A stretch of 61,635 bases of DNA, counting the filler, from Squatina squatina (taxonomy: Eukaryota): the NCBI GenBank assembly GCA_031763465.1. It is 4 parts of 4 records of this genome, joined end to end, with 100 filler letters (N's around TTAATTAATTAA, not from the genome) between each part and the next. Parts side by side here need not be neighbours in the genome. Positions count along the whole stretch, not along the records: positions 34,042 to 47,218 come from JARFOE010000051.1; 3 more parts are not named here. The stretch is one strand, 5' to 3'. Positions 16,834 to 48,330 of this stretch are shown one piece after another. The notes beneath the pieces are model-generated. The model was given only the letters and a program-made list of their open reading frames with translations, ran no database searches and was not told the DNA's origin. Position numbers and translations under genes: made by a program. Position 1 is the stretch's first letter. Each line of letters begins with the position of its first letter.

Positions 16834-17314
16834 ACTGCATATGGGCGGTCAAGAGCAAATTCTATCTTCAGGTGAAGCAGGATAAGAAGGCAAGGGAATC
16901 ATTGGACCAGGAAGGAGGAAGAGAGGAAAGGTAGTGAAGGAAGGGGAAGGCGTGAGGGAAAGGGGAGGAAGAGGAAATGATAGGAAGAGGAGGGGGAAGG
17001 AACGAAGAGGGATTCGGAAGGTGGGAGGCAAAGAAGAAAGGTTTATGGGGAGGAGATCCACCTACAGGCCATGATTGGGTGATGCCAAGCTTAAGTTTTA
17101 AATCTTACAAGAGAAATGAAAGACTGAGGGAGGTCAGGATTTGCACAGTTTGAGCAGCTTGGAAAGAATGATTTGAGCAAGAAATGCTGCGATGAATTTT
17201 GACAAAGTGAGGATACAAGGAGGAGGAAGAGCACATGGGTATTCAGGAGAAAGAGAGGAAAGCACAGAGGACCAATGATAGTAATATTGACAAAGGAGAG
17301 AGGATAGTACCAAC

Positions 17315-17444
17315 CTCAAAGCCTTTTGCATTATCTCCCAGGCCTTCCACAATCCCAGAGCACTCAAAGCCAGGAACCAATGGTGTCTTTGGTGGATTGT
17401 CTATGTTACCTTGTCGAACCATCAAGTCTATGAAATTCAAGCCA
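17315..17444 (-). CDS. VAT1L: Synaptic vesicle membrane protein VAT-1 homolog-like, internal exon (130 nt)
   Basis: GLNFIDLMVRQGNIDNPPKTPLVPGFECSGIVEGLGDNAKGFE; acceptor ttttttcag, donor GAG|gttggt; next to NUDT7 as in other vertebrates. Confidence 0.93.
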
Positions 17445-17880
17445 CTGAAAAAAATAAATTGTCAAGTCAGAATTCCAGCAACTGANNNNNNNNNNNNNNN
17501 NNNNNNNNNNNNNNNNNNNNNNNNNNNNNNNNNNNNNNNNNNNNNNNNNNNNNNNNNNNNNNNNNNNNNNNNNNNNNNNNNNNNNACTTTTGTGGCATCT
17601 AACCCTATGCAGTTTTAAGACTGTGACTTTATAGATGACTTGTGATGCTAAATTGCCTCACAGATAAGATCCCCTTTTTCAACGAACTGCTGATTTTTTT
17701 TTTTGTACTGCCTTTGGTGATTCAGAGATGGTCCTGAGCGTAAGCACAGCTACCCGTCTCCTAGTGACCAACACCCAGGAGTCTGGCAAATCAAATCATT
17801 TTGTGTTTTTTTTTTCCCAGTCAGTTTGCAAAATCATCAAGCGATGAGCAACACAAAGAACACTCAGACCATATTACTGT

Positions 17881-18956: not shown

Positions 18957-19260
18957 TCATAGCTTACTAGTGGCATATTTTTCCATAAGATACTTATCCA
19001 TACTTGCAATTGGATCATCTATGTCAAAATCGACCTTAAACAAAGGCCTCTGACCGAGAGCTAAATAGGCCACAATAATACAAAGTTGGGCAGTGAGGCC
19101 CCAGATAGTGAACGACTTGTGCAGCAGCCGGTCCTTGAAGGTGAAGAAATGCAGCAACCTTCCCGCATCGTACGGAGTTGAAGTGTGCTCCTCTGACTTT
19201 AAGAAGTGGTGCATTGGGAGGATAAACACGTCACTCACTTCATCAGCGTTGGGCTGTGGC
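18957..19260 (-). CDS. NUDT7: Peroxisomal CoA diphosphatase NUDT7, terminal exon (5'-truncated at scaffold end)
   Basis: PQPNADEVSDVFILPMHHFL...FTIWGLTAQLCIIVAYLALGQRPLFKVDFDIDD...YATSKL*; IWGLTA motif and C-terminal SKL PTS1. Confidence 0.93.
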
Positions 19261-19304
19261 NNNNNNNNNNNNNNNNNNNNNNNNNNNNNNNNNNNNNNNN
19301 NNNN

Positions 19305-19316
19305 TTAATTAATTAA
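19305..19316. other. Artificial scaffold linker TTAATTAATTAA
   Basis: Six-frame stop spacer centred in N44+12+N44. Confidence 0.97.
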
Positions 19317-19360
19317 NNNNNNNNNNNNNNNNNNNNNNNNNNNNNNNNNNNNNNNNNNNN

Positions 19361-22300: not shown

Positions 22301-22420
22301 CCATTTCTGATGTGTGCGCACACAACGGTAGCACTGCCAACCTGCCCAAAATGGCAGCCACTGCAGGACCCACTGGAAGCAGTCCCTGATGGCCAGCACT
22401 AACCCCTGAATTTCCAGGCA
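19361..22420. mobile_element. PIF/Harbinger DNA transposon, decayed (copy 1)
   Basis: Convergent layout: spliced accessory-gene remnant on + (19361-20625) and HARBI1-like transposase on -; segments shared with copy 2 at 54979-56380. Confidence 0.85.
20795..21950 (-). pseudogene. Harbinger DDE transposase (HARBI1-like), frameshifted
   Basis: MGALLVVPL start; ELCHLLKPDLQP..TMALNFFSSG..GAIDCSHVAL; WLIGD/QGYPL; TRSIIMQTIG (third acidic residue lost); motifs fall in several frames. Confidence 0.88.
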
Positions 22421-22444
22421 AAACTGTTTACACTGGCAGGAAGT

Positions 22445-22690
22445 TTGGTAACCAGAGGACCCAGATTTAAGGTAATTGGAAAAAGAATCAGAGGGGAGAT
22501 GAGGAGAATTTTCTTTGCGCAGCGAGTTGTTATTGTCTATAATGCACTGCCTGAAAGGGTGGTAGAAGCTGATTTCAACAGTAACTTTCAAAAGGAAACT
22601 TTTTCAGCACTATGGGGAAAGAACAGGCAAGTGGGATTCATTGGATAGCTCTTTCCAAGAGTCAGCACAGGCACGATGGGCCAAATGAGC
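22445..22690 (+). mobile_element. CR1-type LINE 3' fragment
   Basis: VTRGPRFKVIGKRIRGEMRRIFFAQRVVIVYNALPERVVEA. Confidence 0.88.
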
Positions 22691-24973
22691 AGTCGTTGCC
22701 ATCGCAAATCGCACAGTGGCGCTGTATCTTACCTGAGTTAATCCTGACGCTTTCAGCAGCTCCTGGGGAGAGTGGCTGTCGAAGTAGAAGAGGTTGGGGG
22801 GCCGCGCCCCAACAATGCGCGAATAAACTTTGTTTCGGACCTGCATGCAGAAGCAAAAGAAACAAAATCAGTCAGATGGAACACTATGAGTGTCTCTTAA
22901 TTGTACTTGTAGAAAATCTCATCTGAGCAAACAGCCTCTCAAAACTCGATCAGGATATCACAATGTGGCTGGCAACAACAATCAGACGTACAAACCCTCA
23001 TTGGGCATGTGATCTCTATACTCATATTTGCACGGCATGTGCCCGTGAACTTGAGCCTTTTTGTGTGCTTGTTGGTAAAATAAAAAGGAGAGTGTGCAAG
23101 TGTGTTTTGGTCGTTGCAAGTACTTTACTTCCTTGGTTACTGAATGGTGGCAGATATTTGTTAAGTAAACATACAGGGCCTGAAATTACAATCTCCCCGG
23201 GTGGGAACAATGTTTTCACGCACCCGGGGAGACATCGCAAAANNNNNNNNNNNNNNNNNNNNNNNNNNNNNNNNNNNNNNNNNNNNNNNNNNNNNNNNNN
23301 NNNNNNNNNNNNNNNNNNNNNNNNNNNNNNNNNNNNNNNNNNCGCCTCTGGCAGGAAGTGGCCGCCCATTTTGCATGTGCGCGATTTTGCTCTCCGTTTA
23401 CATCCTTTGAATTTAAAAATCAGAACTAGTCTTCATACTCACTCTAATAATATGGATATAAGTGTTGATTTAATGATCTGCTTGTAGCAATATGTTATTT
23501 TGCTGATTGACTTATCATGAGTTCACACTATACTCTGCGTGATTTTGCTCTCTGTCCAGCAGAAAATGCCAGCGATATGTTTGTTATATATCAATTATTT
23601 CAAATTTGTATTGTTTTGTGTGCTGCACAGCCTCCTACATTCGCTGTCTTTGAGAGCCATGGAAAGAGCATTTTCTATTGAGTGAGTTTTTCCCTGAAAT
23701 ACTTGATAGGATTTCTCTGTTGACCAGAATGCTCTCTGTAATGTGTGCTGTAATGGATCTGACGCATATCACGCAGTGTTTATAATGAGGCACCACTGTG
23801 GGTTTTTTTTTTGATTTGTTTTAGTTTGGTAGAAAGTTTTCAGCAAAAGAAAAATCTACATATCTGACAGGCGCTATTCAGGATTTGATGTAGAAGGTGA
23901 CTGTGAATTCTGAGCCATCAACAGTGAAAAATACTCGACAAGTATTTACAGAGAACATCCAGGGACCAGGAATCAACACAGTGGGCGGCATTTCCATTTC
24001 TCAATACACTAATTGGACAATCTCACTCTAGGAAGCCATGAGNNNNNNNNNNNNNNNNNNNNNNNNNNNNNNNNNNNNNNNNNNNNNNNNNNNNNNNNNN
24101 NNNNNNNNNNNNNNNNNNNNNNNNNNNNNNNNNNNNNNNNNNGTTCAATATCTCATCTGAAGGATGGCACCTCAGTGAGTGTACCACCTTCTCAGTACAG
24201 CATACATTATGCGTTGAAGTCTTGAAGACCCTTCTGATTCAGAGGTGAAAGTGCTGGAAGGTGAGACCAGATGACACTTGTTACAGGACCAGATACTGTG
24301 CTAGTGCAGCATTAGAGGAATTCTTGAAGTGGTGGCTTCAATTAGATTTTTCAGGGGATTGTTCAATCGAATTACAAGAAAAAACGAGATACAAAGGATC
24401 TTGTTTTTTTTATTATGAGGTTGAACTTCAGTCATGTCATCTGGGGATTTGTGCACAAAAATAAGCATAATTATCTTAACAGAAACAAGAATAATAGGGT
24501 TTCAAANNNNNNNNNNACCTTCGCCTGACAGAAATAAACCAGCATGTGGGAAGCGCTTGAAGTAATTTACTGCTCAATGTGAACATTAGCAGACTGTTAA
24601 GATAACTTAATTCACACATTTTCACTAATTATCACTGAGATCCAGTGGAAGGTCACAAATTACTATTTTGTTCCGTGAGGAGATAAACCAGGCACAGAAT
24701 TGATATGATTCCCATCTCGACACAGGCTTGTTTGGTTATTAAGAGAATGAAACTAAAACACATAAATGAGTTGTTGCTGTGACAGTTTGATTTCTATCCC
24801 ATTTTTTAATGTTGACTCCAAGTAACACAAAAAAACTCATTACAGAAGACTATCTTAATATATCAAACAGTTTNNNNNNNNNNNNNNNNNNNNNNNNNNN
24901 NNNNNNNNNNNNNNNNNNNNNNNNNNNNNNNNNNNNNNNNNNNNNNNNNNNNNNNNNNNNNNNNNNNNNNNNN

Positions 24974-25430: not shown

Positions 25431-26616
25431 TATTCATTTCTCCATCACCATTGTTTAAACTTATATTGAATCTTGTTCGTTCCCCTTGATGTCAAACAAA
25501 TCCCAACCTGCTGCTACAAAAACAAGGCAGCTTGGAGGCACTGGCAAAACCCTTCAGTTCTGTACTTACAAGCTCATGTGTAATTTCTGATTGGCATTCA
25601 AATATGCATGTGATTACTCATCTAAATTTACATGTGGTTCCCCAATACCGCAGAAATCGGAAATTAATGGCATGGTGCTTCATCCTAGGTTCACCGAAGC
25701 ACAATATAGGCCAGTCACTGAGGTGGCTTCTGTGCGCTTCCAAAGTTCAGCACCCATAACGTTTTCTCCATTTCCAGGCTCAGTTAAGTGAATAAGTAAA
25801 TTTTCACCGGATGTGGGTGCTTTTTTTTATCTCCGCTCTGCAGCAAGCTGAAGTTTGCACCAGCACACAGTTTTCTTTACAGCATGTGTGGTTTAGCAGG
25901 TCCACCCCCATGACAAGCTTCTGTGGAAGCCACAGATCTGCATATATTTCCTGTCAGAGGTAAATGGGTCATACTAGTCAACACTGGGTGTAGCAAGAGC
26001 TTCTGCATTTCTGAGAGGTTTGAAAAAAAATACTGTGCAATCTCACTTGGTAAACTCACTGTTCTCATTGCACAAAAGGCAAACAATACCTTCAATCACA
26101 CTTTAGACCTGCCCTGAAAAAAATCAAAATCAGTCAACATATGAGCAGGCTNNNNNNNNNNNNNNNNNNNNNNNNNNNNNNNNNNNNNNNNNNNNNNNNN
26201 NNNNNNNNNNNNNNNNNNNNNNNNNNNNNNNNNNNNNNNNNNNNNNNNNNNTGATACATCTTCTTTGACATTATTTGGATTTCTCAACTTTCAATTACAA
26301 AACATAAAATAGGCTCTTGTATGGCTTCTGTGGAGGAAAGAAATTTTAGAATGCAGTTGTCACAAAAAAACCTTATCTTTTTCAGCCCAAATGTGCTCAG
26401 TATTGGCCCACCATGGATAGGCAGTCCAAGTCCTTTGGTGACTTCACTGTCAGAATTAGTGAGGAGAAGTGGTGCCCAGACTATGTTATTCGGAAACTCC
26501 TCATTTCACACGTAAGTTTGAAGGAGCTCCTTATTTGCTTCTGTTCCTGTCACATTTGCTTTTTGTTATGACCGACTGAAGAGATCACGAACTGATATTT
26601 TCTTGTATTTCTTCAG

Positions 26617-26774
26617 AAGAAGGAAAAAACTCCTGAGAGAGAAGTAACGCACATCCAGTTCATTAGGTGGCCAGACCATGGTGTTCCAGAAGATCCACAT
26701 CTCCTTCTCAAATTGCGTCAGAGAGTCAATGCCTTCAGAAACCTATTTAGTGGTCCAATAATTGTGCACTGCAG
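26617..26774 (+). CDS. PTPRC: CD45 receptor tyrosine phosphatase, D1 catalytic exon
   Basis: [52 protein letters not shown]; acceptor cttcag, donor CAG|gtaatg; WPD loop and start of the HCS motif (not in the supplied ORF track). Confidence 0.93.
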
Positions 26775-27582
26775 GTAATGAGGATTTTTTTTTAAAGGTG
26801 GCATTCTGCAATAGTCTGGAAGTAATTGCTTACTTGTTATCACTCATCTGCTGTCTCAGTAACAGAATTAGCATTGCAGTGGTACTCCCAATCTGGGCAA
26901 ACTATGTTCGAGTAAACAAGCTGACAAAATTATCTTATGTTCTGTCCTACTTTAACAAAATGCAACATAATTAAATGCTCTTGATCTGGAATTCATTGAG
27001 GGTAGTATTTCTGATTTTAAATGTTGTCATCTTTGAAAAGCAACCGGCCAAGGTTTTGTCACTTTTGGTATGTTTTTGTCACACTTCTGTGTCAACTTTT
27101 CCATTAACATGCAAACTGCTTACGTAAGCTTGTAATTACACTGTCCTGCCACTTGTGTGGTTGCAGTGCCTTGAACATGGAACTTCCAGCCTGGCTTTGA
27201 GGAGGAGCTGTCGNNNNNNNNNNNNNNNNNNNNNNNNNNNNNNNNNNNNNNNNNNNNNNNNNNNNNNNNNNNNNNNNNNNNNNNNNNNNNNNNNNNNNNN
27301 NNNNNNNNNNNNNTCACAGATCTCCCCCAGCCCTCCCTTCATGATGAGTCCCTGATCACAGAAGTCCAGTGAAAATTGTGACAAGTGGCCGTGAGCTACT
27401 TCCTCAAGAGCTCATGAGGTAGGGAGAGGAGAAAGTTCAACGGATGTTCCCGTACCAACACCATTGAAATTGGACTGGGAGAAGGTTATTTGTCTCTTGG
27501 CTAGGAAATGATGCTGGGGGTAGAGGAACTTGAGATTGAAAGAGAAAAATAACTATATATTTGATTTGGTCTTCTTTGACAG

Positions 27583-27858
27583 GAGCAGTACCAATTCCTC
27601 TATGACACCATTGCCAGCACTTACCCAGTGCAGAATGGGACATTAATATCTGACAATGGTCCGGCACAGACCACTGTTGACATAATCTCTGAAACCCCTC
27701 TGGAAAACAAATCTCAACAAAAAGCTGCCTCTGACTCTACTGAGAATAAGGAAGAGCCGTCCGCAGAGGATGACGAAGCAAAGTCTGGCAGTAGTAACGA
27801 CAAACAACCAGCAGAGAACCCTATTAACGGACCTATAACTAGTGGTGAAAATGAGTGA
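27583..27858 (+). CDS. PTPRC: CD45 terminal coding exon
   Basis: ttgacag|EQYQFLYDTIASTYPVQNG...acidic tail...NGPITSGENE*. Confidence 0.9.
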   Translation, partial: EQYQFLYDTIASTYPVQNGTLISDNGPAQTTVDIISETPLENKSQQKAASDSTENKEEPSAEDDEAKSGSSNDKQPAENPINGPITSGENE

Positions 27859-33525: not shown

Positions 33526-33985
33526 ACCATTAAACGAAATAGAATTTAAAATGGGAAAAATTCTGGATCCAAGACTTTTAGCAAAGATGACGACTTCATT
33601 CTTAGTCTGCGGAGTGCAGTTCCTTTGCAGTTTTCTGACGTAAAGGTGTTTAATCAGTTAACATCTGTAAAAACAGCGAGAAAATCACAGCCAAGAGAAT
33701 GCACAGAACCTCTGTCGATTTCTTCTGCAGTTGAATAACTTGTTTTAGGAATTTTTGAAATCTGTTTTAGTGCAAAAAAATCTCTTGCTATTATAATCTT
33801 TAAAGTGTTAACAATGTCCTTGCAACTGAGAGGAGGCAATGATTGATTGTGTTCACTGAAAGACATTTTTCTCACCCCCCCCCCCCCACACAAAAAATCC
33901 AAGCATTGAGCATGGAAAGTTTGGTAGACAAGGCAATTAACNNNNNNNNNNNNNNNNNNNNNNNNNNNNNNNNNNNNNNNNNNNN

Positions 33986-33997
33986 TTAATTAATTAA
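33986..33997. other. Artificial scaffold linker TTAATTAATTAA
   Basis: Same spacer within an N run. Confidence 0.97.
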
Positions 33998-34059
33998 NNN
34001 NNNNNNNNNNNNNNNNNNNNNNNNNNNNNNNNNNNNNNNNNGCACGGCTGGGCCGGGGT

Positions 34060-34340
34060 GGGACTGTACCGGAGAGCGCGCTGATTGTAGTATGTGTGGG
34101 ACTCTACCGGAGAGCGCGCTGCTTGTCCGGTGTGTGGCAGTGTACCGGAGAGCGCGCTGCCTGTCCTGTCTGTGGGGCAGTGTACCGGACGGAGTACGTG
34201 CTGCTTGTCCTGTGTGGGGGACAGTGTACCGGACGGAGTACGTGCTGCTTGTCCTGTGTGGGGGACAGTGTACCAGAGTGCGCACTGCTTGTCCTGTGTG
34301 TGTTGCGGTGCACTGAAGCGCGTACTGCTTGTCCTGTGTA
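34060..34340 (+). repeat. GC-rich intronic minisatellite, ~7 units of 38-44 bp
   Basis: 'tgtaccgga...gctgcttgtcctgtgtg' with unit starts near 34065, 34103, 34141, 34181, 34225, 34269, 34309. Confidence 0.9.
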
Positions 34341-34384
34341 GATAGGTTCTCTGGTATTGACTCCAGCTCTGTCCTTTGTTTCAG

Positions 34385-34573
34385 TTTCACTCAATGGACA
34401 CATTACATAAAAATAACTATGATGTATCGAAGGCGATATCAGCGTTGGTGCCACAGGGAGGGCCTGTGCTCTGCCGGGATGAGATGGAGGAGTGGTCAGC
34501 CTCAGAAGCCAACCTGTTCGAAGAGGCTCTGGAAAAATACGGAAAGGATTTTAGTGACATTCGACAAGACTTT
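34385..34573 (+). CDS. MTA-family (MTA1-like) NuRD subunit, ELM2-SANT exon
   Basis: [63 protein letters not shown]; tttcag| and |gtgagt, 189 nt. Confidence 0.93.
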
Positions 34574-34749
34574 GTGAGTACAGCCAAAAGTTGTAAACAG
34601 TTGCTATCCATGGAGAGACATTTTTAGTCCGAGTCCTGTAACAGTCGAACCGCATGGGGTTAACTAGGTCCCTCAAAGTCCAGCCTGGATAATATTGTAG
34701 CTCTAAAATCATGGCTGGTGCACTGGATTAAACACTGACCTTCCACACC

Positions 34750-34964
34750 TTGATGGGGCAGTTTAGAGAGAGCTTTACTCTGTATCTAATCCGTGCTGTA
34801 CCTGTCTAGGAAGTGTTTGATGTGGACAGTGCAGAGTGAGCTTTACTCTGTATCTAATCCGTGCTGTACCTGCCCTGGGAGTGTTTGATGTGGACAGTGT
34901 AGAGGGAGCTTTACTCTGTACCTAATTCGTGCTGTATCTGCTGTGGGAATGTTTGATGGAGCAA
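34750..34964 (+). repeat. 68-bp tandem repeat, ~3 units, cut by a gap
   Basis: 'agctttactctgtatctaatccgtgctgtacctg...gtgtttgatgtggacagtg' starting at 34771, 34839, 34907. Confidence 0.9.
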
Positions 34965-35330
34965 NNNNNNNNNNNNNNNNNNNNNNNNNNNNNNNNNNNN
35001 NNNNNNNNNNNNNNNNNNNNNNNNNNNNNNNNNNNNNNNNNNNNNNNNNNNNNNNNNNNNNNNNGATTTAAGCCCAAATGCTTTTGGGTAAAATCCCAGT
35101 GCTTTTTCTTATACTGATAGCTGTAAAAATGAAGCTGCTGCAATGGTAATCTTTTCCTTAGATTCTACTTGAGCTGTGGAGGGAGAGGGTCAGAATGCCT
35201 TGATCTCGTTCCATGTTTTATGTTTGTAATGTAGACTCTACAACTGAAGCACTCACTATATTGCGCAAGCTAACTATAATGTGTGGTTTGTTCAGCATGT
35301 CCTCCAGCTGTGACTGTTTTTATTTTGTAG

Positions 35331-35517
35331 AATCCCCATGGGTACTGGGTGAAGAATGCAAACCCCAAGTTTACACTGAAGACGAGGCAGGCTTTCTGTC
35401 TTCAGACAACAAGACTAACCAAAATTGCACGGTATTTCTGTCAGAACCTGTTCCGCCCGCGGCAGGCAGCTCGGCGTCCCTTTATACCAATCAACAGTGC
35501 AGCTATCAAAGCAGAAT
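35331..35517 (+). CDS. MTA-family exon, first RBBP4-binding (R1) region
   Basis: [62 protein letters not shown](C); ttgtag| and |gtgagt. Confidence 0.9.
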
Positions 35518-35569
35518 GTGAGTCACTGCGGAATTGTAATGGACGATCCCTTCTCTGTAACTTGCACCT

Positions 35570-36335
35570 AACTGATTTCTATTACTCAACTATTCCAGTG
35601 CTCTCCTGGCTGGCCTCCCACCTTCCACCCTTCGTGAACTCATTCAAAACTCTGCGGCCCGAATCCTAATTCGCACCAACTCCCGTTCACCCATCACCCC
35701 CAGGCTTCACCGCCTGATCTCTTGGCTCCTGGCCCGTCAACGCCTCAATTTTAAAATTCTAATCCTTGTGTTCAAATCCCTTCATAGCCTTGTCCCTCCC
35801 TAACTCTCTAACCACCTTCAGCCCTACAATCCTCAGAACTCTGTGTTCCTCCAATTCTGGCATCTTGTGCATCCCTGATTTCCTTCANNNNNNNNNNNNN
35901 NNNNNNNNNNNNNNNNNNNNNNNNNNNNNNNNNNNNNNNNNNNNNNNNNNNNNNNNNNNNNNNNNNNNNNNNNNNNNNNNNNNNNNNTAATCTCCTCCAG
36001 CCCCACAACCCTCCTTGAGATCTCTGCGCTCCTCTAGTTCTGCCCTCTTGAGCATCCCTGATTATAATCGCTCCACCATTGGCGGCCGTGCCTTCTGTTG
36101 CCTAGGCCCTGAGCTCTGGAATTCCCTCCCTAAGCCTCTCCGCCTCTCTCCCTCTCTCTCCTCCTTTAATACCCTCCTTAAAACCTACCTCTTTGACCAG
36201 ACTTTTGGTCACCTGCCCTAATACCTCCTTANNNNNNNNNNAATTTATTGTCTTAAAATACCCCTGTGAAGCACCTTGAGACGTTTTACTGCGTTAAAGG
36301 CGCTATATAAACACAAGTTGTTGTTGTTGTTGTTA
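35570..36335 (+). mobile_element. L2-type LINE 3' fragments (across gaps) with (TTG)n tail
   Basis: GGRAFCCLGPELWNSLPKPLR...LKTYLFDQTF; tail 'aaggcgctatataaacacaagttgttgttg' shared with the Deu-SINE tail. Confidence 0.85.
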
Positions 36336-36868
36336 TTGCGCTCCGCAGAACAGACGATTGATATCAGAATCCAAGAGATGTCACAGAGATTATCACAATT
36401 GATCAGACGCAGGAGCCCAGGCAGCAATGGGCTTGTGATCAGACGCTGGGGAGTGGAAGTACTGTACTTCGAGGATGTTAAACAGATTGTCCGTTCCGCA
36501 AACCTTGTTATANNNNNNNNNNNNNNNNNNNNNNNNNNNNNNNNNNNNNNNNNNNNNNNNNNNNNNNNNNNNNNNNNNNNNNNNNNNNNNNNNNNNNNNN
36601 NNNNNNNNNNNNTGGGGATCCTGCGATGTGGGACGGTGAGTGGGGATCCTGCGCTGTGGGACAGTGAGTGAGGATTTTGTATGTGGAATAAAGGGATGTG
36701 GATACAAACTGGGAAACGGTAAGTTCAGGACTGTTGGGAGGAAAGAGAGTGGAGCCAAAAGCTCTGGACTCTGAGCTCTGTGATCAAAGCCTGACCGACC
36801 TGTTAGTTTGCTTTGGTTAGTATTGTTGTGCCATTCAGATTTAATTTGTGTTGTTTTCTTGAAACTAG

Positions 36869-37019
36869 GAAAGTGCGTAAGATGCTGGGCCCGGTAGATA
36901 TGAAGCGAGCTGCACGCCAGCCCTACAGGCAGATTCTCATCCGGCAAGGACGCGCATCCTCCGCATCGCAGCAGCCCAGGCAGCCCATGAATGAAGAGCC
37001 AATTGTCATCGAGGATTAA
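36869..37019 (+). CDS. MTA-family terminal coding exon
   Basis: (R)KVRKMLGPVDMKRAARQPYRQI...MNEEPIVIED*; MTA1-type KRAARR-like motif and EPIVIED end; candidate AATAAA at 38070. Confidence 0.88.
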
Positions 37020-38961
37020 TGCAAAGTGGAGTTTTTAAATAAAGCAAGAGACTGTAGTCCCTGTTATACTTGAACCTTCAGTACGCATGAAGTAGAGCTC
37101 CTGAACTAGACTCCGAATCAAGTGCTTGTCAGCCTCACGTTTAAGATCAAATTGAAGGATTATTATTTGAGTTAGGTTTTCAATTTCCCTCCAGAGTGGA
37201 TGATGGCAGCGGACAGACAGTGGCCAGTGGGGTNNNNNNNNNNNNNNNNNNNNNNNNNNNNNNNNNNNNNNNNNNNNNNNNNNNNNNNNNNNNNNNNNNN
37301 NNNNNCGGACCTGGCACGCGATGCAATCTGCGAACCTGAATGGCCTGTGGTTCTCTTTGTTCTTCGAACTCTCCTCTGCTCCAGTCTGTGCTGCTGGGGC
37401 CCCTAGGACAGTGTGGTTGTCTTCAGCTTGGTAAAAGGTTTTTTTAAGAAAAAGAAAAGGAACGAAAACATTTAAAATTCCTTTTATTTTGAGAATTGTC
37501 TGTACTAGTTTAAGGAGGTGGCGTTTATCCTCGGTTTAAGAAGCAAGTTTTGTTTTTATGGACGGGTTGGCGTGCAGTTAATGCAGTGCATTGTTTTTGC
37601 ATGTTACACTGTATATCGTATCCTTGATCCCATTTAAAATGGTGCAGTTTTCCAATGGAGCAGAAGAGGAAAAAAACTTTCTTAAAAGACTTTTTTTCAT
37701 GTATGACCTTGAATCTTTTCATCACTTGAGATTCGTTATTGCAAGTTTCACAGTGAATAATTATGTACAAAATATTTTTCCATGTTTCTGACTTGGGTTG
37801 TGTTTGAAGCGCCCTGATTTTCACAGTGAGATATATTCCTACTACAAGGTTCTATAGTTTAGTGTGCTGATATGTACATACACTGCTAATGTAGTTGGTA
37901 AGTTAGTGTTATTCAGTCATTCCATAGGATTCAGGGGAGGGGCAGTGGATGTAAAGTTTTACTGATTCTATTTGTTACAGCTTCAGGAAGTACAGTGCCC
38001 GCCTGAGGCAGCGTGTACTTGATGCCCATCACCGAACATTCAAATGAAGCTCATCCTTAGCCATACAGAAATAAAGCATCAAGAAATCTCTCCTCAACTT
38101 ACTTTCTTTTACTCCAGCTTTTTATTTTGTCAACTGTTCTTTTGGTGTTTTGTTTAATGTGAGAACTGTGACACCTTTTCTTTTCAGCAGCTCTGTGAGC
38201 TCTTGACTTTCTGCAGCCTGCCATTGTGCAGACTTCATCTATACTGTTCATTCCTGGTACGTTCAACAGNNNNNNNNNNNNNNNNNNNNNNNNNNNNNNN
38301 NNNNNNNNNNNNNNNNNNNNNNNNNNNNNNNNNNNNNNNNNNNNNNNNNNNNNNNNNNNNNNNNNNNNNGAGCAAGTGTCACTTGATAGCACTGTCTACG
38401 ACACCTTCCATCACTTTGCTGATGATTGAGAGTAGACTGATGGGGCAGTATATGGCCAGATTGGATATTACATTGGTGCTCAGTACTTTAGGCTGGGAAT
38501 GAGGAGGAATAATTAAGCAGAGTCACAATACCTGATCTTTATCCAGTGGCTCATTGCTGCTTAGCGCATGTCAGTGGACATCGGCCAAGGATAGGATTGG
38601 GTTGCATTGTTATGATTCCTCCAGTCATTTTAGACTGCTGACACTCACCTTCATGGTCTTATCTGAAGATCAGTTCCTTAACTGAGGCAATGAAGGGCAA
38701 TCACCGATAGCAAAGCATGAGTCACTGCATTTAGGATAGAAGAGATAAGGAGATGTAAATTGGAAAGGCGATTGGAGGAGAAAAAATAGACAAGTAAAAG
38801 GGGTAAAAAAAAAACAGAAAAATGTAGATGGATCACTGCATACATAGTACTCCAGTAAATCAGTAACACTGTGTTTTCAGTATTTAATAAGTGTATTCAT
38901 ATCACATTAACAAATCTACTAATCTCAGAAATTCATTTGTAATGATTCTTTCTCTTTCCAG

Positions 38962-39074
38962 CTCCATGCCGAAGACTGGCCTTTCGGGGTGGAAGTATGC
39001 AAGCTAATGCCTTTTATGCAGAAAGCATCGGTTGGCATCACTGTTCTCAGTCTCTGTGCACTCAGTATAGACAG
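38962..39074 (+). CDS. Endothelin receptor type B-like, TM3 exon (113 nt)
   Basis: [37 protein letters not shown](R); ttccag| and |gtaatt (not in the ORF track). Confidence 0.92.
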
Positions 39075-39183
39075 GTAATTTACCACATCAGTCAAACATG
39101 TTTCTCTGTTTGATCTTGCTTGCTACTTGCTATCGAAAGGCATTATAGTTAATGTGGTGTTTCATGGGATCTCCCAATTTCAG

Positions 39184-39388
39184 GTATCGAGCAGTAGCAT
39201 CTTGGAGTCGAATTCAAGGGATCAGAGTTCCTATGTGGACCATGATTGAAATCATACTCATCTGGGTAGTGTCGGTTATTTTGGCAGTTCCTGAAACCAT
39301 AGCCTTTGATCTGGTAACCATGGACTATCGAGGCAAGAAATACAGTGTCTGCTTGCTTCATCCCATTCAGAAAACTAAATTTATGCAG
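39184..39388 (+). CDS. Endothelin receptor type B-like, TM4-ECL2 exon (205 nt)
   Basis: [68 protein letters not shown]; tttcag| and |gtaaga. Confidence 0.92.
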
Positions 39389-40316
39389 GTAAGAGGTTCC
39401 ATCATTTCTGTTTATTGATGAAATTCGGTCATGTTGATGGATACACTTTCCTGATCAGCTTGGGCTGAGCAGTGTGTGCAGATGTTTTAGTTTGCAGCGG
39501 GATACAAAACTGACAATACATCAGGTGAAATTACTTTACAAAGCTATTCCAAATTAACTAAATAGACTGTAACATTGAGTGCATTAATAAAAACACAGCA
39601 TGGGAAAAGCTGAAAGACAGTTTCGTGGTTCAGGTATAGACTCTTCATTCGAACTGACGATGTTTAAACTGGAGACCCAATCTGGTGAAGGTTCCACACC
39701 CAAAATATAATCTGTCTTTTTTCGTTTTAGGTGCTGATGCACTCGCTGTGTGTCTCCAGTATTTGGAGTTTTACATTTTGCCTATACATTGAAATTGGTA
39801 CTATTTTATAAATATTTCTAGGGTGATGGATGACATATTCTTCATGGAAGTTGAACAAAATGTATAATCTGAGGGTAACCGCGAGGTACAGTTGATTCGC
39901 ACACTCTTGTTTCGCTTCAGTTTGAATGCATATCAGATTTGTACAATGGAGAGTCTCTTTCTCTCCATCAGGCGAACTGTGAAGTGAATTTGCAGAGTCT
40001 TAAACCAGGTCACAATGGCTCTGAGTCCACAATACAAAAACTGTCCAAAATTAATATAAATTTACACACAACTGCTGCGGTGTGTGACGCAGACAGTTGG
40101 AAAGACAGGGGGTGAAGATCAAAGTTATTTATTCAGCGCAGTAAATGATTTGTTTTTACTTTTTTACTTTATGCTATACTTGACCCAAGAGTGTTTCATT
40201 TTAACAGTGGGAGCCGNNNNNNNNNNNNNNNNNNNNNNNNNNNNNNNNNNNNNNNNNNNNNNNNNNNNNNNNNNNNNNNNNNNNNNNNNNNNNNNNNNNN
40301 NNNNNNNNNNNNNNNN

Positions 40317-40532
40317 GTAAGTGCTGCTTGATAGCACTAGCGATGACACTTTCCATCACTTTGCTGATGATTGAGAGTAGACTGATGTGGGCAGTAATTG
40401 GCTGGATTAAACTTGTCCTGCTCTTTGTGGACAGGATATGCCTGGGCAATTCTCCACATTGTTGGGTAGATGCCAATGTTGTAGCTGTACTGGAACAGTT
40501 TGGCTAGAGGCACGGCTAGTTCTGGAGCAACT
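40317..40532 (-). mobile_element. LINE (CR1/L2 group) reverse transcriptase N-terminal fragment
   Basis: APELAVPLAKLFQYSYNIGIYPTMWRIAQAYPVHK..NPANY / ISLLSIISKVME; a related piece lies at 38370-38465. Confidence 0.85.
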
Positions 40533-41664
40533 TGCTCGGGCAAAAGGGAACACAAGATATTGGCTTCTATGATGGCTCAGTGGGCAAAGTCAAAGAGAGG
40601 TTCAGCCATGCAACCAGAAAGGTCAAAAGTTCAATTCTGCTCTGTACTGTTAGCCAATCTCAGCTGGGATGACAGTAGCGACACAAAAATTCTCCTCAGA
40701 AACCTGGGATTCCTTCTCCAGCTTGCTTTCAAGTTTCCTTCCGACTCCCCACCCCCACCACCCCCTATTGAATTGCACACATGGACACCAGCTGAGGGCA
40801 GGATCAGGCTAGGTTGCGGTGCTCCCATAGCGCAGTGCTCCACTGACATTCACTGCCTGACAAATGTATGAAGAGTAACTACTTGGAAAAGATACTGCAG
40901 GACGACAAATATTTGTGGAAACTGGAAATAATTAAACAAGTTTCTAAGACGTCCTGCAAGGTGTGTCATAGGTTAGTCAGGAATTGTTTCCAGAACCTGA
41001 AGCACCTTAAGCTTTCCCTTCCATTTAGAACAATGTGGGGGGCCTGCAAACTCTNNNNNNNNNNNNNNNNNNNNNNNNNNNNNNNNNNNNNNNNNNNNNN
41101 NNNNNNNNNNNNNNNNNNNNNNNNNNNNNNNNNNNNNNNNNNNNNNNNNNNNNNTAATCTATAGAATGAACTGAATTTAGAAATGCATTGCAAACTATTC
41201 CACAGCAAAGATATTAAGTTGAGTGGTGGGAGCATTCGAGTCCAATGAAGCAGTCAAAGAACTTCAGAAAGACCTAGCCAAAATTTGCAAGTGGGTAGAA
41301 CTAAGGCAGAGAAAATTCAATAAGTGTAATACATGGAAGAAAAAAACGGGCATGCTTAAAGTATGACATCAAACTAGTTTGGAGAATGAGTTTGAGAATG
41401 ACACACTCAACACTTACCATGTCAACTCACTGCAACAAGACAAACAAAATAGTGTCAAATCAGTACAGTACAAATATCAGTGTGATATACAAGCTATACA
41501 ATGCTCTGGTTAGATGGAATAAGTAATGTATTCAGCTCTGGTCACCAAGGCACAAAGAAAACATCGAAGCCCTGAAAAGACTAATCCCTAGTGGTAGACA
41601 GCTGGGTTATGAAGATTAGAAAAACTAACTTCAGCCTTGAAAACAAGCAAATGAGAGGAAGAGT

Positions 41665-42478
41665 GAGGCACAGTGGGTAGCACTCTCACCGGAGCCAGAA
41701 GATAGTGGGTTCAAGTCTCACTCCAGAGACTTGAGCGCAAAATCTAGGCAGACACTCCAGTGCAGTACTGAGGGAGCGCTGCACTGTCAGAGATGCCATC
41801 TTTCGGATGAGACTTTAAAACGGAGACCTTGCCTGTTCTCTCAGGTGGGCATTGAAGAGCCGGGGGAGTTTTCCTCCGTGTCCTGGGGCCAAATATTTCT
41901 CCCTCAACCAACATCACTAAAACAGATCGAANNNNNNNNNNNNNNNNNNNNNNNNNNNNNNNNNNNNNNNNNNNNNNNNNNNNNNNNNNNNNNNNNNNNN
42001 NNNNNNNNNNNNNNNNNNNNNNNNNNNNNNNCCACTCCAGGTGCCAGTGGATAGTGATCAGGAGTGAAAGCCAGAGCTGATTTTTTTCCCTCTTCCTGAG
42101 CCATCTGAGCTCAGCTAACACAGCATAGGCCAGGGATTGAGGGAGTGCTGCACTGTCAGAGGTGCCGTCTTTCAGATGAGACGTTAAACCGTCTGCCCTC
42201 TCAGGTGGACGTAAGAGATCCCGTGATACTATTCCGAAGAAGAGCAAGGGAGATCTCACCAGTGTCCTGGTCAATATTTATCCCTCAACCAACATCAGAT
42301 CATCGAGTAATCATCACATTACTGTTGGCGGGACCTTGCTGTGCGCAAATTGGCTGCTACGTTTGCTACATCACAACAGTGGCAACACTTCAAAAGTGCT
42401 TAATTGGCGGTAAAGCACTTTTGGACATCCTGAGGTCATGAAAGGTGCTATATAAATGCAAGTTTTTTCTTTCTTTCT
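41665..42478 (+). mobile_element. Deu-domain SINE pieces (41665-41931 and 42140-42478)
   Basis: tRNA head 'ggcacagtgggtagcactctc...gggttcaagtc', Deu body, tail 'aaaggtgctatataaatgcaag'. Confidence 0.85.
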
Positions 42479-43562
42479 ATTAAAGTAGACAACAGGAACA
42501 GATTTTAGAGGGTTTCTAAAGGGAAGAGATTAAGGAACACGGGGAGAAGCTGGACAGGTGGCATTCACCTGGGAAGAAAAGACACTTGTTGGGCTTAATG
42601 ATCTTTTCCTGTTTCTAAAAATTCTCATGTTTTTGTTTTCTCTCCTGGTCCTTTAACCTTGTTGGTCTTGGCCCTTCACCTTGGTTCCCTCGTGCAGAAA
42701 TGTTGCCACGGGATGTTTTCTTGCTCTTGGTTGCACTTTCACGGGGAGGTGCTGAGAGAGGCCAGGCTCAAACTCCACAGGGAGGCCTGAACTATTTAGA
42801 GACAGACTAAGCCGCAGGGTCATCGGGGATGTACCTTCTTGGAGCTAGCTGAAGCAGTGTTGACGGAGCTTGAAAGCCGGCAGTCTGTCCACACACCCAG
42901 TGGGGTGCGGTAGAGACTACCTGAGCGAAAGGAAAATTAAAGGGGGAACAATCATCTTAAAAGGAAAATGAATACACTTATAATCCATTGGGTATCACCC
43001 AGGACAGACTACGCACGCAACGTTAAAAAAAAATTCATTGATTATAAATGAGTTTGCCTTCAGCTGAAATGAGGGGAAGGGGTGAAATGATTACCGTTGC
43101 CCATTTAAGCGGCAATTGCCTCATACCCTGTGGTTGGAGCTGTACAATTTTCTGCTGAAGCTCAGCAAAGGGACCCAACCATTTGCAAAAACATTTCCAT
43201 AGAAAAACTATCCGTTGTTTGACTCTTTCAGCTGACCTGCTGAATTTATTTCTCTCAGCTTCTTGCATTGCCCTAGGGACGGGATGAGAGAGCAAGAGGT
43301 GAAGAGNNNNNNNNNNNNNNNNNNNNNNNNNNNNNNNNNNNNNNNNNNNNNNNNNNNNNNNNNNNNNNNNNNNNNNNNNNNNNNNNNNNNNNNNNNNNNN
43401 NNNNNNTCTGGAGTAGGACTCAAACCCACAACCCTCAGAGGTGAGCGTGCCCCCTTCACTGAGTCCCAGGGTGGGCAGAGAGGCAGTGGGATCTGTGGGC
43501 TGCTGTTTGGCGTTGTTGTGACCCGTTACTGACCCTCTTCTCTTCGCTCTCTCCCTCCACAG

Positions 43563-44011
43563 TTGAGCTTCTTGGACCCCGATGATCTGAGTGCCTTTAA
43601 CCCCAAGCTGGATTGCCGAACAGTCAGGCCACCAGCCGGATTCCGCAGACACTCCACCAGCCTCCTGCCGACGGGCAGCTCCAAACCCCAGCCAGCACCC
43701 CTCACCGACAGCTGCTGGCGGATGCCCCTCGACCCCACCCAGCTGAGGAGCCTGCAGCAGTCGCTGGGTCTCAGCCGCTGCCTGAGCGACAGCGACTCGC
43801 TGGAGGATGCCTTCAAACCGGACCACCACCAGCAGCAGAAGCAGCAGCAGCAGCCATCTCCCCGCTACAAGACCGAGCTGTGCCGGCCCTTCCAGGAGAA
43901 CGGCTTCTGCCGCTACGGAGACAAGTGTCAGTTCGCCCACGGCCTCGGGGAGCTGCGGCTCCTAAGCCGCCACCCCAAGTACAAGACTGAGCTGTGCCGC
44001 ACCTTCCACAC
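43563..44011 (+). CDS. TIS11/ZFP36-family tandem CCCH zinc-finger protein, main exon (3'-truncated by a gap)
   Basis: ccacag| acceptor; [49 protein letters not shown]; GFRRHSTS motif. Paralog identity unresolved (ZFP36 by linkage to PAF1). Confidence 0.93.
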
Positions 44012-44111
44012 NNNNNNNNNNNNNNNNNNNNNNNNNNNNNNNNNNNNNNNNNNNNNNNNNNNNNNNNNNNNNNNNNNNNNNNNNNNNNNNNNNNNNNNNN
44101 NNNNNNNNNNN

Positions 44112-44740
44112 GCTACCTTTTTAATATTTATATGCCTAAAGAAGACTCTTGGATTATCTCTTATGTTAGCTGCCATTCTATTCTCATATCCTCTCTTTGC
44201 CCTCTTATTTTCTTTTTCACTTCTTCTCTGACCTTTCTATATATCGCCTGATTCTCAGATGTATTGGCAACCTGACATCTGTCATAAGCACTCTTTTTCT
44301 ACTTCATCATATTCTCTATCTGCTTCATCATCCAGGGAGCCCTGAATTTAGTTGTCCTGCCTTTTCCTCCAGTAGGAATGCACCTCAACTGTACCTGAAC
44401 TATCTCCTCTTTAAAGACAGCGCATTGTTCCATTACAGTTTTGCCTGCCAATCTTTGTTTGCAGTTTACCTGGGCCAGAACTCTTCTCATCCCACTGAAA
44501 TTGGCCACCCCCACAGTTAAACATTTTCACTCTGGATTGCTCCTTGTCCTTTTCCATAGCAAATCTAAACCTTATGATACTATGATCACTGTTCATCTAC
44601 TGACACTTGCTCTACTTGACCTACCTGATTCCCCAGAACCAGATCCAGCAATGCCTTCTCCCTCGTTGGGCCGGAAGCGTACTGATCAAGAAAGTTCTCC
44701 TGAACGCACCTCAGAAATTCTTCCCCTTCGCTGCCCTTAA
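44112..44740 (-). mobile_element. CR1 endonuclease-to-linker fragment
   Basis: EFLRCVQENFLDQYASGPTREKALLDLVLGN; SDHSIIRF; NPRVFFRHINIK. Confidence 0.9.
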
Positions 44741-45442
44741 TACTATTATGGTAGGCTACTACAATGGTATTTAATCCTCCTCTCCCGCGTTGGTTTGCTT
44801 CTTGCCACCCTGGGGTAAGGTTCCACCACTGGCAGACGCTCTCCAGTTCCTTGCAAAAAAAAAAAATGAAGAGGAATGGCATCTCTCAGCATTGATGGCC
44901 GCTGGTTGGAACTTACACTGACCTTAGCAGGAACAGAGCAGAGAGTATGCCCGAACCTGTTGAGTTACTTGTGAAAATTATTATCGCTTGATGCAGACTC
45001 TTTCTGATCTTGCCAGGAATTGGTAATGGGTAGTGATGAAGCACATTAACACCTCAGGATGCACCATGCAGAGGAGCTAGCGGCAGAGGTAGTTTGAAAT
45101 ATAACCGTCCCAACAGTTTTCAGTGTAATTTCAGCTCGATGAGCGTAAAATGAAATCACAACCGTGTTCACAGCAATCAGCCACATGAATTGTTTCTGCA
45201 CTCTACAATCCCTCAGAGACTGGCTTTCATCCTGTTCCATTACTGTAATGCTGTTCTGTAATATACCTTCATACATCAAATACACAGTAACATTGCATTG
45301 GCAATAAACTGTGCTTTTCTCTTTTTAAAAGTTATTAAAATAAATTACAGTAAAAATCTAGCTGCAGATGTAATTCAGAATAATGTAACAGGGCAGCTCA
45401 GAAAATACAAAGCTTAAAGATTAGGTTACATCAGTCATACAA

Positions 45443-45555
45443 AAGTGAAATACTGCGGATGCTGGAAATCTGAAATATAAACAGAAAATGCTGGAAATAC
45501 TCGGCAGGTCAGCCAGCATCTGTAGAGAGAGAAACAGAGTTAACGATTCAGACCG
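45443..45555 (-). mobile_element. Penelope-like terminal fragment
   Basis: Close match to 18086-18200. Confidence 0.6.
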
Positions 45556-45686
45556 NNNNNNNNNNNNNNNNNNNNNNNNNNNNNNNNNNNNNNNNNNNNN
45601 NNNNNNNNNNNNNNNNNNNNNNNNNNNNNNNNNNNNNNNNNNNNNNNNNNNNNNNTGCAGGCAGCCAGCTCAGGGTTGAGCTCTGT

Positions 45687-46126
45687 TCAGTCGCTCTCGC
45701 TGCCACTTCCCTCATTCTCGCTCGAATCTGTACCCTGCTCACTGCCACTTTGCACAGGGCGTTGGTTCTCGTTGTCAGAATGCTCGCTGCCACTGTTGGA
45801 GGCGCTCCTGCTGCGGCTGCGGCTCCTGCTCCTGCTCCTGCGCTCTTCCTCCTCGCTCTGCTGCTCGTCGTCACTGCCACTGTCCTCCTGGCCGCTCTCG
45901 TCCTGCTGATCCTCGTTGTCACTGTCATCGTCACTGCCGAAGATCTCCTCCTTATCGCGGGCTTCGCGAGCCTGCCGCTCGTCCCCGCTGTTGCTTTCCG
46001 CATCGCTCCCACTCTTGTTGCTTGCTTTGTCCTCCTCTTTGTCCTCTTCCCGCTCACTTTCACTCCCCGAGTGCTCGTCCACACTGAGTGCCTTCTCACT
46101 GCCACTTTCTCTGTCTTTCTCATCAT
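45687..46126 (-). CDS. PAF1: RNA polymerase II-associated factor 1, terminal exon
   Basis: DEHSGSESERE...EARDKEEIFGSD...RSRSRS...GSEHS...SESD*; acceptor tttctcttcatcag. Confidence 0.92.
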
Positions 46127-46546
46127 CTGATGAAGAGAAACAATGCAGGAGTTAGATGGAGACCACAGATCCCATGACACTGCCCCAATCTCCCACACTG
46201 AGCATGGGTGACAATCCCCTGCAGGATCGGAACTCAATGCACAAAAAGCAGGTGTTGTAACCCTAAAGTATTATTAGAAACAACAAAAACCACANNNNNN
46301 NNNNNNNNNNNNNNNNNNNNNNNNNNNNNNNNNNNNNNNNNNNNNNNNNNNNNNNNNNNNNNNNNNNNNNNNNNNNNNNNNNNNNNNNNNNNNNTAATGC
46401 CCTATTGTTTTTGCACTCAAATGAGTTGCAATGAGGTAAGCTCACTGTTTGGACCTCAGAATTTCTGCAATTTGCAGCCTGAAGGCACTAAATCCAACAG
46501 CTCCCGACCTCTTCCCTTACACCAGAAGCAGGTTGGAGCGCCTCAC

Positions 46547-46650
46547 CTGATCATAGCTTGGGACATCATCTCCACGGCTCCTGGACCAGCGATCTCTTTA
46601 GGTGCTGGGTCGGAGTCGAATATGACCTGTGCACACGGGTTAATCCACAT
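46547..46650 (-). CDS. PAF1: PAF1 internal exon (104 nt)
   Basis: [34 protein letters not shown](R); ttccatag| and |gtgagg (not in the ORF track). Confidence 0.93.
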
Positions 46651-46744
46651 CTATGGAAAGGAGAAAGAAATGGAGATTTGAAACCATCCACAACAATCCT
46701 AATGGAAGTGGAGCAGAATTGCTAGCATTCCTTAACCATGAGCA

Positions 46745-47218
46745 TCATAGGAACAGGCCATTTAGCCCCTCCAGCCTGTCCCGCTATTCAATGAGATAAT
46801 GGCTGATCTGCCATCGAACTCCATAACCTTTGCCCCATATCCTGTAATACCTTTGGATAACAAAAATCTATCGATCTCAGATTTAAAATTAACAATTGAC
46901 CCAGCATCAATTGCTGTTTGCGGAAGAGAGTTCCAAACTTCTACCACCCTGTGTATAGAAGTGTTTTCTAATTTCACTTCTGAAAGGTCTGGCTCTAATT
47001 TCTAGTCCCCAACCAGCAAAAATAGTTTCTCTCTCTCTCTACCTCATCTGTTCCCCTTAATATCTGGAAAATTCGATCAAATCACCCCTTAAACTTTCTA
47101 AATTCTGGGGAATACAACCCTAATTTATGTAATCTCTCCTCGTAATTGAACCCTTGAAGTGGGGTAACATTTTGGCAAACCTATGCTGCATTCCCAAAGC
47201 CAATATATCCTTCCTAAG
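46745..47218 (-). mobile_element. CR1-type LINE 3' end
   Basis: RVVEVWNSLPQTAIDAGSIVNFKSEIDRFL. Confidence 0.88.
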
Positions 47219-47262
47219 NNNNNNNNNNNNNNNNNNNNNNNNNNNNNNNNNNNNNNNNNNNN

Positions 47263-47274
47263 TTAATTAATTAA
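47263..47274. other. Artificial scaffold linker TTAATTAATTAA
   Basis: Same spacer within an N run. Confidence 0.97.
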
Positions 47275-48330
47275 NNNNNNNNNNNNNNNNNNNNNNNNNN
47301 NNNNNNNNNNNNNNNNNNTTCCACATACTGCTGAGCACTCCAATATATGATGGTATGACTTAAAACATTGTGGCATGAATCATTTCTTTCACTTGTGGAA
47401 GAATGCTCACATGATGAGGAAATAACTTTTTCTGTCCTTTTACAGAAGAAATGGAGGGGGGGCGTGGGAAGAGATCAAAGTATTTCCTCCGGCATTGTTA
47501 ACGTGCTTCGTGAACTTGCACAGACAAAACAAAAAAACCATGTGAAAAAAAAATCAACATACAATGCAGCTTGAAAATCCTATTCCTCCCAGTCTTGGGC
47601 TGATGTAATTCCACACACCAATACTGCCTCGTCTGATTCTCTGACCCACTGCAAGCTCCAGGAAAAACAGTGGTATCCCAATAACGAGCAACAAAATCAA
47701 ATACGGCACAAGGTAGGCACCTGAAGAAGAGAAAACATGGTTTTATAACCTGCCATCACCGTCTCACATCAAATCTTTGCACAACTCAGTCTGAGCTGAT
47801 ATTTTGATTCATCAATTTTGTGACATAAATTGGTGGAGGTTTATTAAGCTCCGATTTTCATACCTTTCTTTCACATAGATGTGTTTTCCACCAATATTAA
47901 CAGCCACTGAATTTAACACACAGCTATTCAAACGGACATACATTCGTTCATCTGCTTTTCTTTAACTGCGTGCATAACATTTCATAAATGTGGAAGCAAG
48001 CCTTATAGTTCAAAGCAAAGGATGGAGTCATTATGAAATGCCTGTGTCACTATAGGATAAGTGATGTTCATGATACACTTCTTAGGCTTAGTTGTGATCA
48101 CAAAAACATCAGTTCCAATTAAATTATTAGACATGGCTACACATAAATTTGAGATTGGAATGCAGACGTTAATCCTAAAAGTAATTATGCTTAATTACAA
48201 GATAAATCAAGTTTTCTAAATTTCAAACCCNNNNNNNNNNNNNNNNNNNNNNNNNNNNNNNNNNNNNNNNNNNNNNNNNNNNNNNNNNNNNNNNNNNNNN
48301 NNNNNNNNNNNNNNNNNNNNNNNNNNNNNN

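Follow-up and report, generated by a model that had tools for sequence, protein, structure and literature searches.

Exons from a probable fourth MTA paralogue of jawed vertebrates in the genome of Squatina squatina

The excerpted literature on the NuRD (nucleosome remodelling and deacetylase) complex lists three MTA proteins (excerpts of PMC4244562, PMC8292531 and PMC10380595). In MTA1, an ELM2-SANT region dimerises and recruits HDAC1/2 (PMC4244562, in part), and a C-terminal helix binds RbAp48/RBBP4 through Lys-678, Arg-679, Arg-682 and Arg-683 (PMC4139204, in part); the RBBP4 affinity of human MTA1 670-695 in that paper corresponds to a Kd of about 0.05 uM. Here we analyse three MTA exons in a stretch of Squatina squatina DNA (assembly GCA_031763465.1; the whole stretch of 61,635 nucleotides, joined from four parts, is called the window), which we find highly likely to come from a fourth MTA paralogue of jawed vertebrates. 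The label of this paralogue in databases is 'MTA1-like', and the name 'MTA4' would fit. MTA1 is its sister clade and has the same domain order, with a full-length tail carrying R2 and an acidic C-terminal motif in both; the fourth copy is nevertheless a separate gene, probably on another chromosome, and shares 72% identity with MTA1 of the same species. MTA2 and MTA3, which are 64% and 70% identical to the fourth copy, lie on the other branch of the tree and on other skate chromosomes. The MTA1 structures used in the comparison were PDB 4BKX, 5ICN, 5FXY, 4PBY/4PBZ/4PC0 and 7AO8.

The three exons are given below with residue numbers of their closest match, the Chiloscyllium punctatum protein 'MTA1-like' (P0001), which represents a cluster of 59 members.

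34385-34573, plus strand: MTA exon 1, end of the ELM2 dimerisation domain and start of SANT; P0001 residues 265-327
35331-35517, plus strand: MTA exon 2, R1 region with the clade-diagnostic YWVKN stretch; P0001 residues 464-525 plus a split codon
36869-37019, plus strand: last coding MTA exon, R2 RBBP4-binding helix (variant KRAARQ) and C-terminal tail; stop codon at 37017-37019

All three, which the preliminary description of this DNA had placed at these positions, have AG/GT splice sites and intact reading frames. Exon 1 has a Pfam Myb/SANT match and aligns with MTA1 residues 253-314 in PDB (E 2e-34); exon 2 matches Pfam MTA_R1 (E 7e-24) and PDB 7AO8/5FXY (MTA1 450-511, E 3e-19); and the last exon matches MTA1 667-715 in PDB (E 1e-7) as well as the RbAp48-bound peptides 4PBY/4PBZ/4PC0. 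These matches are far above chance. The exons are not adjacent in the gene, together account for 174 residues of P0001 (739 in all) and each lie on a separate contig of 0.6-0.9 kb; tblastn found no further MTA exons in the whole window. The C that ends the exon-2 motif comes from a split codon and was read across the GT donor; orthologues nonetheless have a C there. Imperfect short tandem repeats occupy the introns on either side of exon 1 (34042-34345 and 34750-34958).

The identity of the gene was assessed with a protein search using exon 2, which gave 25 proteins among 30 candidates, and with two further protein searches, of which we used the best 120 of 741 and the best 120 of 1213 matches. 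The best exon-2 match is P0001, at 100%. Chiloscyllium punctatum also has separately named MTA1 (P0119), MTA2 (P0171) and MTA3 (P0199) proteins, so that, as had been anticipated, a true MTA1 exists beside the fourth copy in the same species. Exon 1 is identical to P0001 at 62 of 62 positions, against 54 for MTA1, 51 for MTA2 and 54 for MTA3 of that shark; for exon 2 the figures are 62 of 62 against 35, 32 and 37; and for the last exon 48 of 49 against 22 for MTA1 and 19 for MTA2, the stored MTA3 isoform being without the tail. In other cartilaginous fishes exon 2 is matched at 58-59 of 62 positions (rays) and 55 of 62 (elephant shark).

P0001 bears five Pfam domains (BAH, ELM2, SANT, GATA and R1), and the window itself holds the start of SANT, R1 and R2. 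In the alignment the fourth copy keeps the four GATA cysteines. P0001 also matches the ELM2-specific HDAC-binding consensus of PMC4244562, in an exon that lies outside the window. Shark-ray identity of the fourth copy is 96%, which argues for strong constraint; the corresponding values for MTA1, MTA2 and MTA3 are 90%, 89% and 86%, over species pairs that differ. Intact frames, splice sites and strong conservation indicate that the fourth MTA is probably a functional gene rather than a pseudogene.

The gene is already present in NCBI, where 'metastasis-associated protein MTA1-like' models of sharks, rays, gar, bichir, sturgeon and eels represent the same gene under an automatic name that leaves its status as a fourth paralogue unmarked. 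Some database names are crossed (P0010-P0012, P0030, P0115, P0117 and P0120), members of the fourth clade being called plain MTA1 and true MTA1 proteins MTA1-like. Our searches turned up no publication in which a fourth vertebrate MTA is named, and the supplements of PMC13450315 and PMC10927551 contain no MTA rows; the ohnologue lists of PMC10115646 and PMC13450315 may include the gene.

In a maximum-likelihood tree built under LG+G4 from 697 columns and 45 named proteins, jawed-vertebrate sequences fall into four clades, every one of which contains both cartilaginous and bony fishes. Support is 100/100 for the fourth clade, whose distinctness had been predicted, 100/98 for MTA1, 100/100 for MTA2 and 100/99 for MTA3. 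The topology is ((MTA1, MTA1-like),(MTA2, MTA3)), with 97/93 for MTA1 plus the fourth clade and 97/97 for MTA2 plus MTA3. Cyclostomes and amphioxus fall outside the four clades, the placement of cyclostomes having support of just 76/61. A tree built under LG+C20 with posterior mean site frequencies, by a quick search on 34 rows (the earlier 45 less 12, plus skate P0008), agrees with this topology; its values in the Shimodaira-Hasegawa-like approximate likelihood ratio test (SH-aLRT) are 99, 98, 100 and 99 for the clades and 90 and 94 for the pairs. The duplication falls after the split from amphioxus and before that between cartilaginous and bony fishes.

The MTA exons share a single linker-bounded block, 34042-47218, with a contig carrying EDNRB-type exons, a ZFP36-family exon and a PAF1 exon. 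The preliminary description had reported the ZFP36-family and PAF1 genes on the same scaffold, with a linkage that crosses placeholder gaps, and both statements hold. The block and its borders contain the following further features.

33942-34041: artificial joint (44 N, a 12-base linker with stops in all frames, 44 N), left border of the MTA block
38962-39074 and 39184-39388, plus strand: two EDNRB-type exons on contig 38370-40216; PDB EDNRB E 2e-30 against EDNRA E 5e-19
43563-44011, plus strand: coding exon of the ZFP36 family (tandem CCCH), cut by a gap; Pfam zf-CCCH E 2e-12
45687-46126, minus strand: last coding exon of PAF1 with an acidic low-complexity tail; PDB PAF1 6TED_V 394-525, E 9e-12, biased composition
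47219-47318: artificial joint of the same build, right border of the MTA block

We take this MTA-ZFP36-PAF1 region to map to 19q13.2 in human, with the other MTA genes at 14q, 2p and 11q. The same neighbours recur in skate. The skate orthologue P0008 (1 member, 1 contig) lies on a contig of 12,364,586 bp, and Leri_38C of the little skate ends at exactly 12,364,586 (PMC10115646 SI Table 8). Hi-C bait bins place Sipa1l3 at 3.09 Mb, Actn4 at 3.50, Paf1-1 at 5.34, Zfp36l1-3 at 7.17, Mta1-3 at 7.35 and Supt5h at 7.76 on Leri_38C, so that the skate orthologue sits, as expected, on the chromosome of Paf1 and a ZFP36-family gene. The order of MTA, ZFP36-family gene and PAF1 in the window equals that in skate (7.35, 7.17 and 5.34 Mb). 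We assume the Leri_38C genes to be those of human 19q13.2. Elsewhere in skate, Leri_8C carries Mta3, Eml4-2 and Zfp36l1-1, and Leri_9C carries Zfp36l1-2 and Map4k5-1; Mta2-1 (LE07327) adjoins Eml4-1 (LE07325), in a block of gene numbers that differs from that of the chromosome-38 genes (LE05571, LE05782). The fourth MTA thus lies in a paralogous chromosome region together with other ohnologue families. In the part of PMC10115646 SI Table 3 at hand, LER9 is A1 1-alpha, the 1-beta slot is blank and LER38 is unlisted, and from this fit we infer that the fourth MTA is the beta sister of MTA1. The gene content of Leri_38C itself suggests that chromosome 38 fills the blank A1 1-beta slot of that table. 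MTA synteny is absent from the portion of PMC10343441 consulted.

The core claim of the preliminary description, that a fourth MTA copy from whole-genome duplication was retained and is linked to ZFP36 and PAF1, is thus supported by the separate MTA1, the fourth clade and the skate synteny. Several observations weigh against it. The window consists of 47 contigs with a median length of 959 bp and placeholder gaps between them, the distance from MTA to PAF1 is ~9-11 kb here and ~2 Mb in skate, and a contig of EDNRB type, which the preliminary description did not mention, stands between the MTA exons and the ZFP36-family exon. The equation of Mta1-3 with the P0008 locus is drawn from the 12,364,586 match and not from sequence, and the true skate MTA1 was not located, one 'mta1' row being found in the part of the PMC10115646 supplement searched. 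The pairing of MTA1 with the fourth clade weakens in trees of half-proteins (SH-aLRT 42 for the N-half and 84 for the C-half), the C-half tree is without the MTA2 plus MTA3 pair and carries a long-branch warning, and MTA3 is not one clade in a FastTree of 225 rows; these weaknesses leave the fourth clade itself unaffected. R2 has a glutamine where MTA1 has Arg-683, which is a contact residue according to the portion of PMC4139204 considered. Finally, the absence of the gene from lobe-finned fishes applies to the matches listed (120 of 741 and 120 of 1213).

Taken alone, the scaffold is poor evidence of linkage because of its short contigs and placeholder gaps, the EDNRB contig and the unrelated genes in other blocks. 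The first part of the EDNRB contig is a repeat common to the next contig, and skate Ednrb-1 is located on Leri_6C (PMC10115646 supplement), so the contig is probably misplaced. It probably represents a mis-join, and may instead be an extra receptor copy. The gene could accordingly be real and its linkage to ZFP36 and PAF1 a scaffolding artefact, an account to which the gaps, the EDNRB contig, the compressed distances and the unrelated genes in flanking blocks all lend weight; should a related reference genome have served to order the scaffold, the order in the window would not be independent evidence either. We judge this unlikely, since the gene order equals that of skate and an excerpt of PMC10115646 reports strong chromosome conservation between skate and bamboo shark. 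Even if correct, it leaves the paralogy of the exons untouched.

A retained whole-genome-duplication copy must also be weighed against a small-scale event that duplicated MTA1 on the stem of jawed vertebrates, with a later move of the copy to a 19q13-type chromosome. The tree alone is indifferent between whole-genome duplication and an early single-gene duplication, and the fourth copy is sister to MTA1, whose position in skate was not seen. However, the symmetric two-by-two tree speaks against such an event, as do the neighbours on Leri_38C, which come from the same ohnologue families (a ZFP36-family gene ~0.2 Mb away, Actn4 and Sipa1l3) and mirror the Mta3, Eml4-2 and Zfp36l1-1 set on Leri_8C. 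The blank 1-beta slot beside LER9 1-alpha, with LER38 unlisted, points the same way in the portion of PMC10115646 SI Table 3 considered. We regard a small-scale origin as quite improbable.

UniRef names the elephant-shark and one gar member plain 'MTA1', and an ELM2 stretch is 95% identical to MTA2; both lend some weight to the view that, in cartilaginous fishes, the fourth copy is simply the orthologue of one of MTA1, MTA2 and MTA3, or else a shark-lineage duplicate of one of these. Nevertheless, MTA1, MTA2 and MTA3 (P0119, P0171 and P0199) are separate in Chiloscyllium punctatum and ray-finned members fall in the same clade as the fourth copy. Approximately unbiased (AU) tests reject a grouping of the cartilaginous-fish fourth copy with cartilaginous-fish MTA1 (p 8e-8), MTA2 (p 1e-5) or MTA3 (p 4e-39), and the fourth copy is not nested inside these clades. 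A whole fourth clade sister to MTA2 is also rejected (p 4e-4), and one sister to MTA3 is rejected weakly (0.020). With four copies in one species and these tests, we rejected orthology to MTA1, MTA2 or MTA3 and give it next to no probability.

About as implausible, and rejected, are a mosaic of MTA1, MTA2 and MTA3 produced by gene conversion and a stitching together of exons of differing paralogues by the scaffolder, which might be suspected because no two of the exons share a contig and motifs are common to different human paralogues. Against them, each exon is closest to the same protein P0001, the two halves of the protein yield the same set of four clades and recover the fourth (SH-aLRT 94 for the N-half and 99 for the C-half), and the motifs also occur in lamprey. 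In trees of single exons, which are too short for deep nodes and were used for nearest neighbours only, each exon groups with cartilaginous-fish members of the fourth clade; in the exon-1 tree ray-finned and cartilaginous members are unjoined, and in the exon-3 tree an amphioxus row lies inside the clade.

The motifs themselves read differently from the mosaic first described. Because the 'MTA2/3-like' motifs of the fourth copy are also found in lamprey, they are ancestral states that MTA1 changed; MTA2, MTA3 and the fourth copy have them in common and MTA1 alone departs from them (DIRQDF in SANT, AARRP in R1). The replacement of FHAMD by FHSMD, considered private to this gene, holds for cartilaginous members of the fourth clade only, ray-finned members keeping FHAMD. 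Two marks are clade-wide, being present in all 9 aligned members: YW[VI]KN ahead of R1, and KRAARQ within R2; the former is an R1 entry stretch that MTA1 does not share, and in the latter 5 of the 6 residues of the R2 motif KRAARR are kept, the Arg-683 position being Gln in all 9.

The fourth copy keeps three of the four basic RBBP4-contact residues of MTA1, Gln replacing Arg-683, and it also keeps its C-terminal tail and the lysine aligned to MTA1 Lys-509. In MTA1 we take Lys-509 to be a SUMO site and the tail to be a SUMO-interacting motif. By analogy with MTA1, the ELM2-SANT region of the fourth MTA would dimerise and recruit HDAC1/2 with an inositol-phosphate pocket, its R1 and R2 helices would bind RBBP4/7, and the protein would scaffold its own NuRD complex, exclusive of other MTAs. 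Judging by its conserved motifs, the fourth MTA may be a NuRD member and define an extra variant of the complex. As to its origin, the fourth MTA and MTA1 most probably arose together in the second, gnathostome whole-genome duplication, and the fourth MTA most probably sits on the chromosome equivalent to human 19q13.

MTA1 has itself changed in sharks and rays. The four aligned elasmobranch MTA1 proteins (P0119, P0114, P0117 and P0123) all have an eroded R2 motif, R[R/Q]SGRR, and a two-residue deletion in R1; in elephant-shark MTA1 (P0110) the R2 motif is altered differently. Relative-rate tests are significant with a lamprey or MTA3 outgroup (p 0.003-0.02) and show no significance with an amphioxus outgroup, nor in chimaera or gar. 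It is possible, although we hold it doubtful, that the conserved MTA1-type role has passed to the fourth copy in sharks and rays while MTA1 drifted.

The distribution of the fourth copy was read from a tree of 225 named rows (9 unnamed rows of 234 matches were excluded from all alignments and trees), of which 23 belong to the fourth clade. Its cartilaginous members are a shark, rays, skates and elephant shark. Contrary to what the preliminary description had implied, the gene extends beyond cartilaginous fishes: two gars, bichir, reedfish, two sturgeons, paddlefish, tarpon, bonefish, a halosaur and two eels are also members. The matches listed include no MTA, of any paralogue, from zebrafish-type teleosts. 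Coelacanth MTA1, MTA2 and MTA3 and lungfish MTA1 and MTA2 are present among the matches listed; the fourth copy, unlike MTA1, has no lobe-finned row. Loss in mammals, as first proposed, is therefore probably too late: among the matches listed the fourth clade is without rows from coelacanth, lungfish, amphibians, reptiles, birds or mammals, and the gene was probably lost on the lobe-finned stem. The pattern is like that of the differentially lost ohnologues from two whole-genome duplications in an excerpt of PMC10115646, by whose count 24 ohnologues survive in cartilaginous and ray-finned fishes but were lost in the lobe-finned ones, and which names wnt6b and cspg5 as examples of retained ohnologues. 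Differentially lost ohnologues are thus a known class.

A third artificial joint of the same build separates other blocks of the window.

19261-19360: artificial joint (44 N, 12-base linker, 44 N) between other blocks

The three joints divide the window into blocks of ~13-19 kb, and genes look unrelated across them, so linkage across joints is not to be trusted. A last exon of NUDT7 (18960-19259, minus strand) ends in a peroxisomal SKL signal and is adjoined by an ADH_N-domain exon (17246-17461, minus strand), which we take to be VAT1L-like and presumably also a neighbour of NUDT7 in human; this arrangement suggests reference-genome order within blocks. Protein-tyrosine-phosphatase exons by Pfam (26350-27855, plus strand) look to us like PTPRC/CD45, and a sodium:neurotransmitter symporter exon (47557-47742, minus strand; Pfam SNF E 3e-22) is presumably SLC6A15/17-like. 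GC-richer stretches with broken frames at 19361-22900 and 55290-56430 appear by eye to be remnants of Harbinger/HARBI1-type transposases.

In summary, a fourth MTA implies that the ancestral jawed vertebrate kept all four copies and that the lobe-finned stem is probably where one of them disappeared. The fourth MTA fills the empty slot of the 14q/2p/11q/19q paralogon, and skate chromosome 38 is indicated as the 1-beta partner of LER9. The labels 'MTA1' and 'MTA1-like' in fish databases confound two genes. The R2 of the fourth MTA is a natural variant of the RBBP4-binding helix. If the fourth copy has indeed taken over the role of MTA1 in sharks and rays, their NuRD complexes would differ from those of mammals in the numbers of RBBP4/7 and would provide a natural experiment on the second RBBP site.

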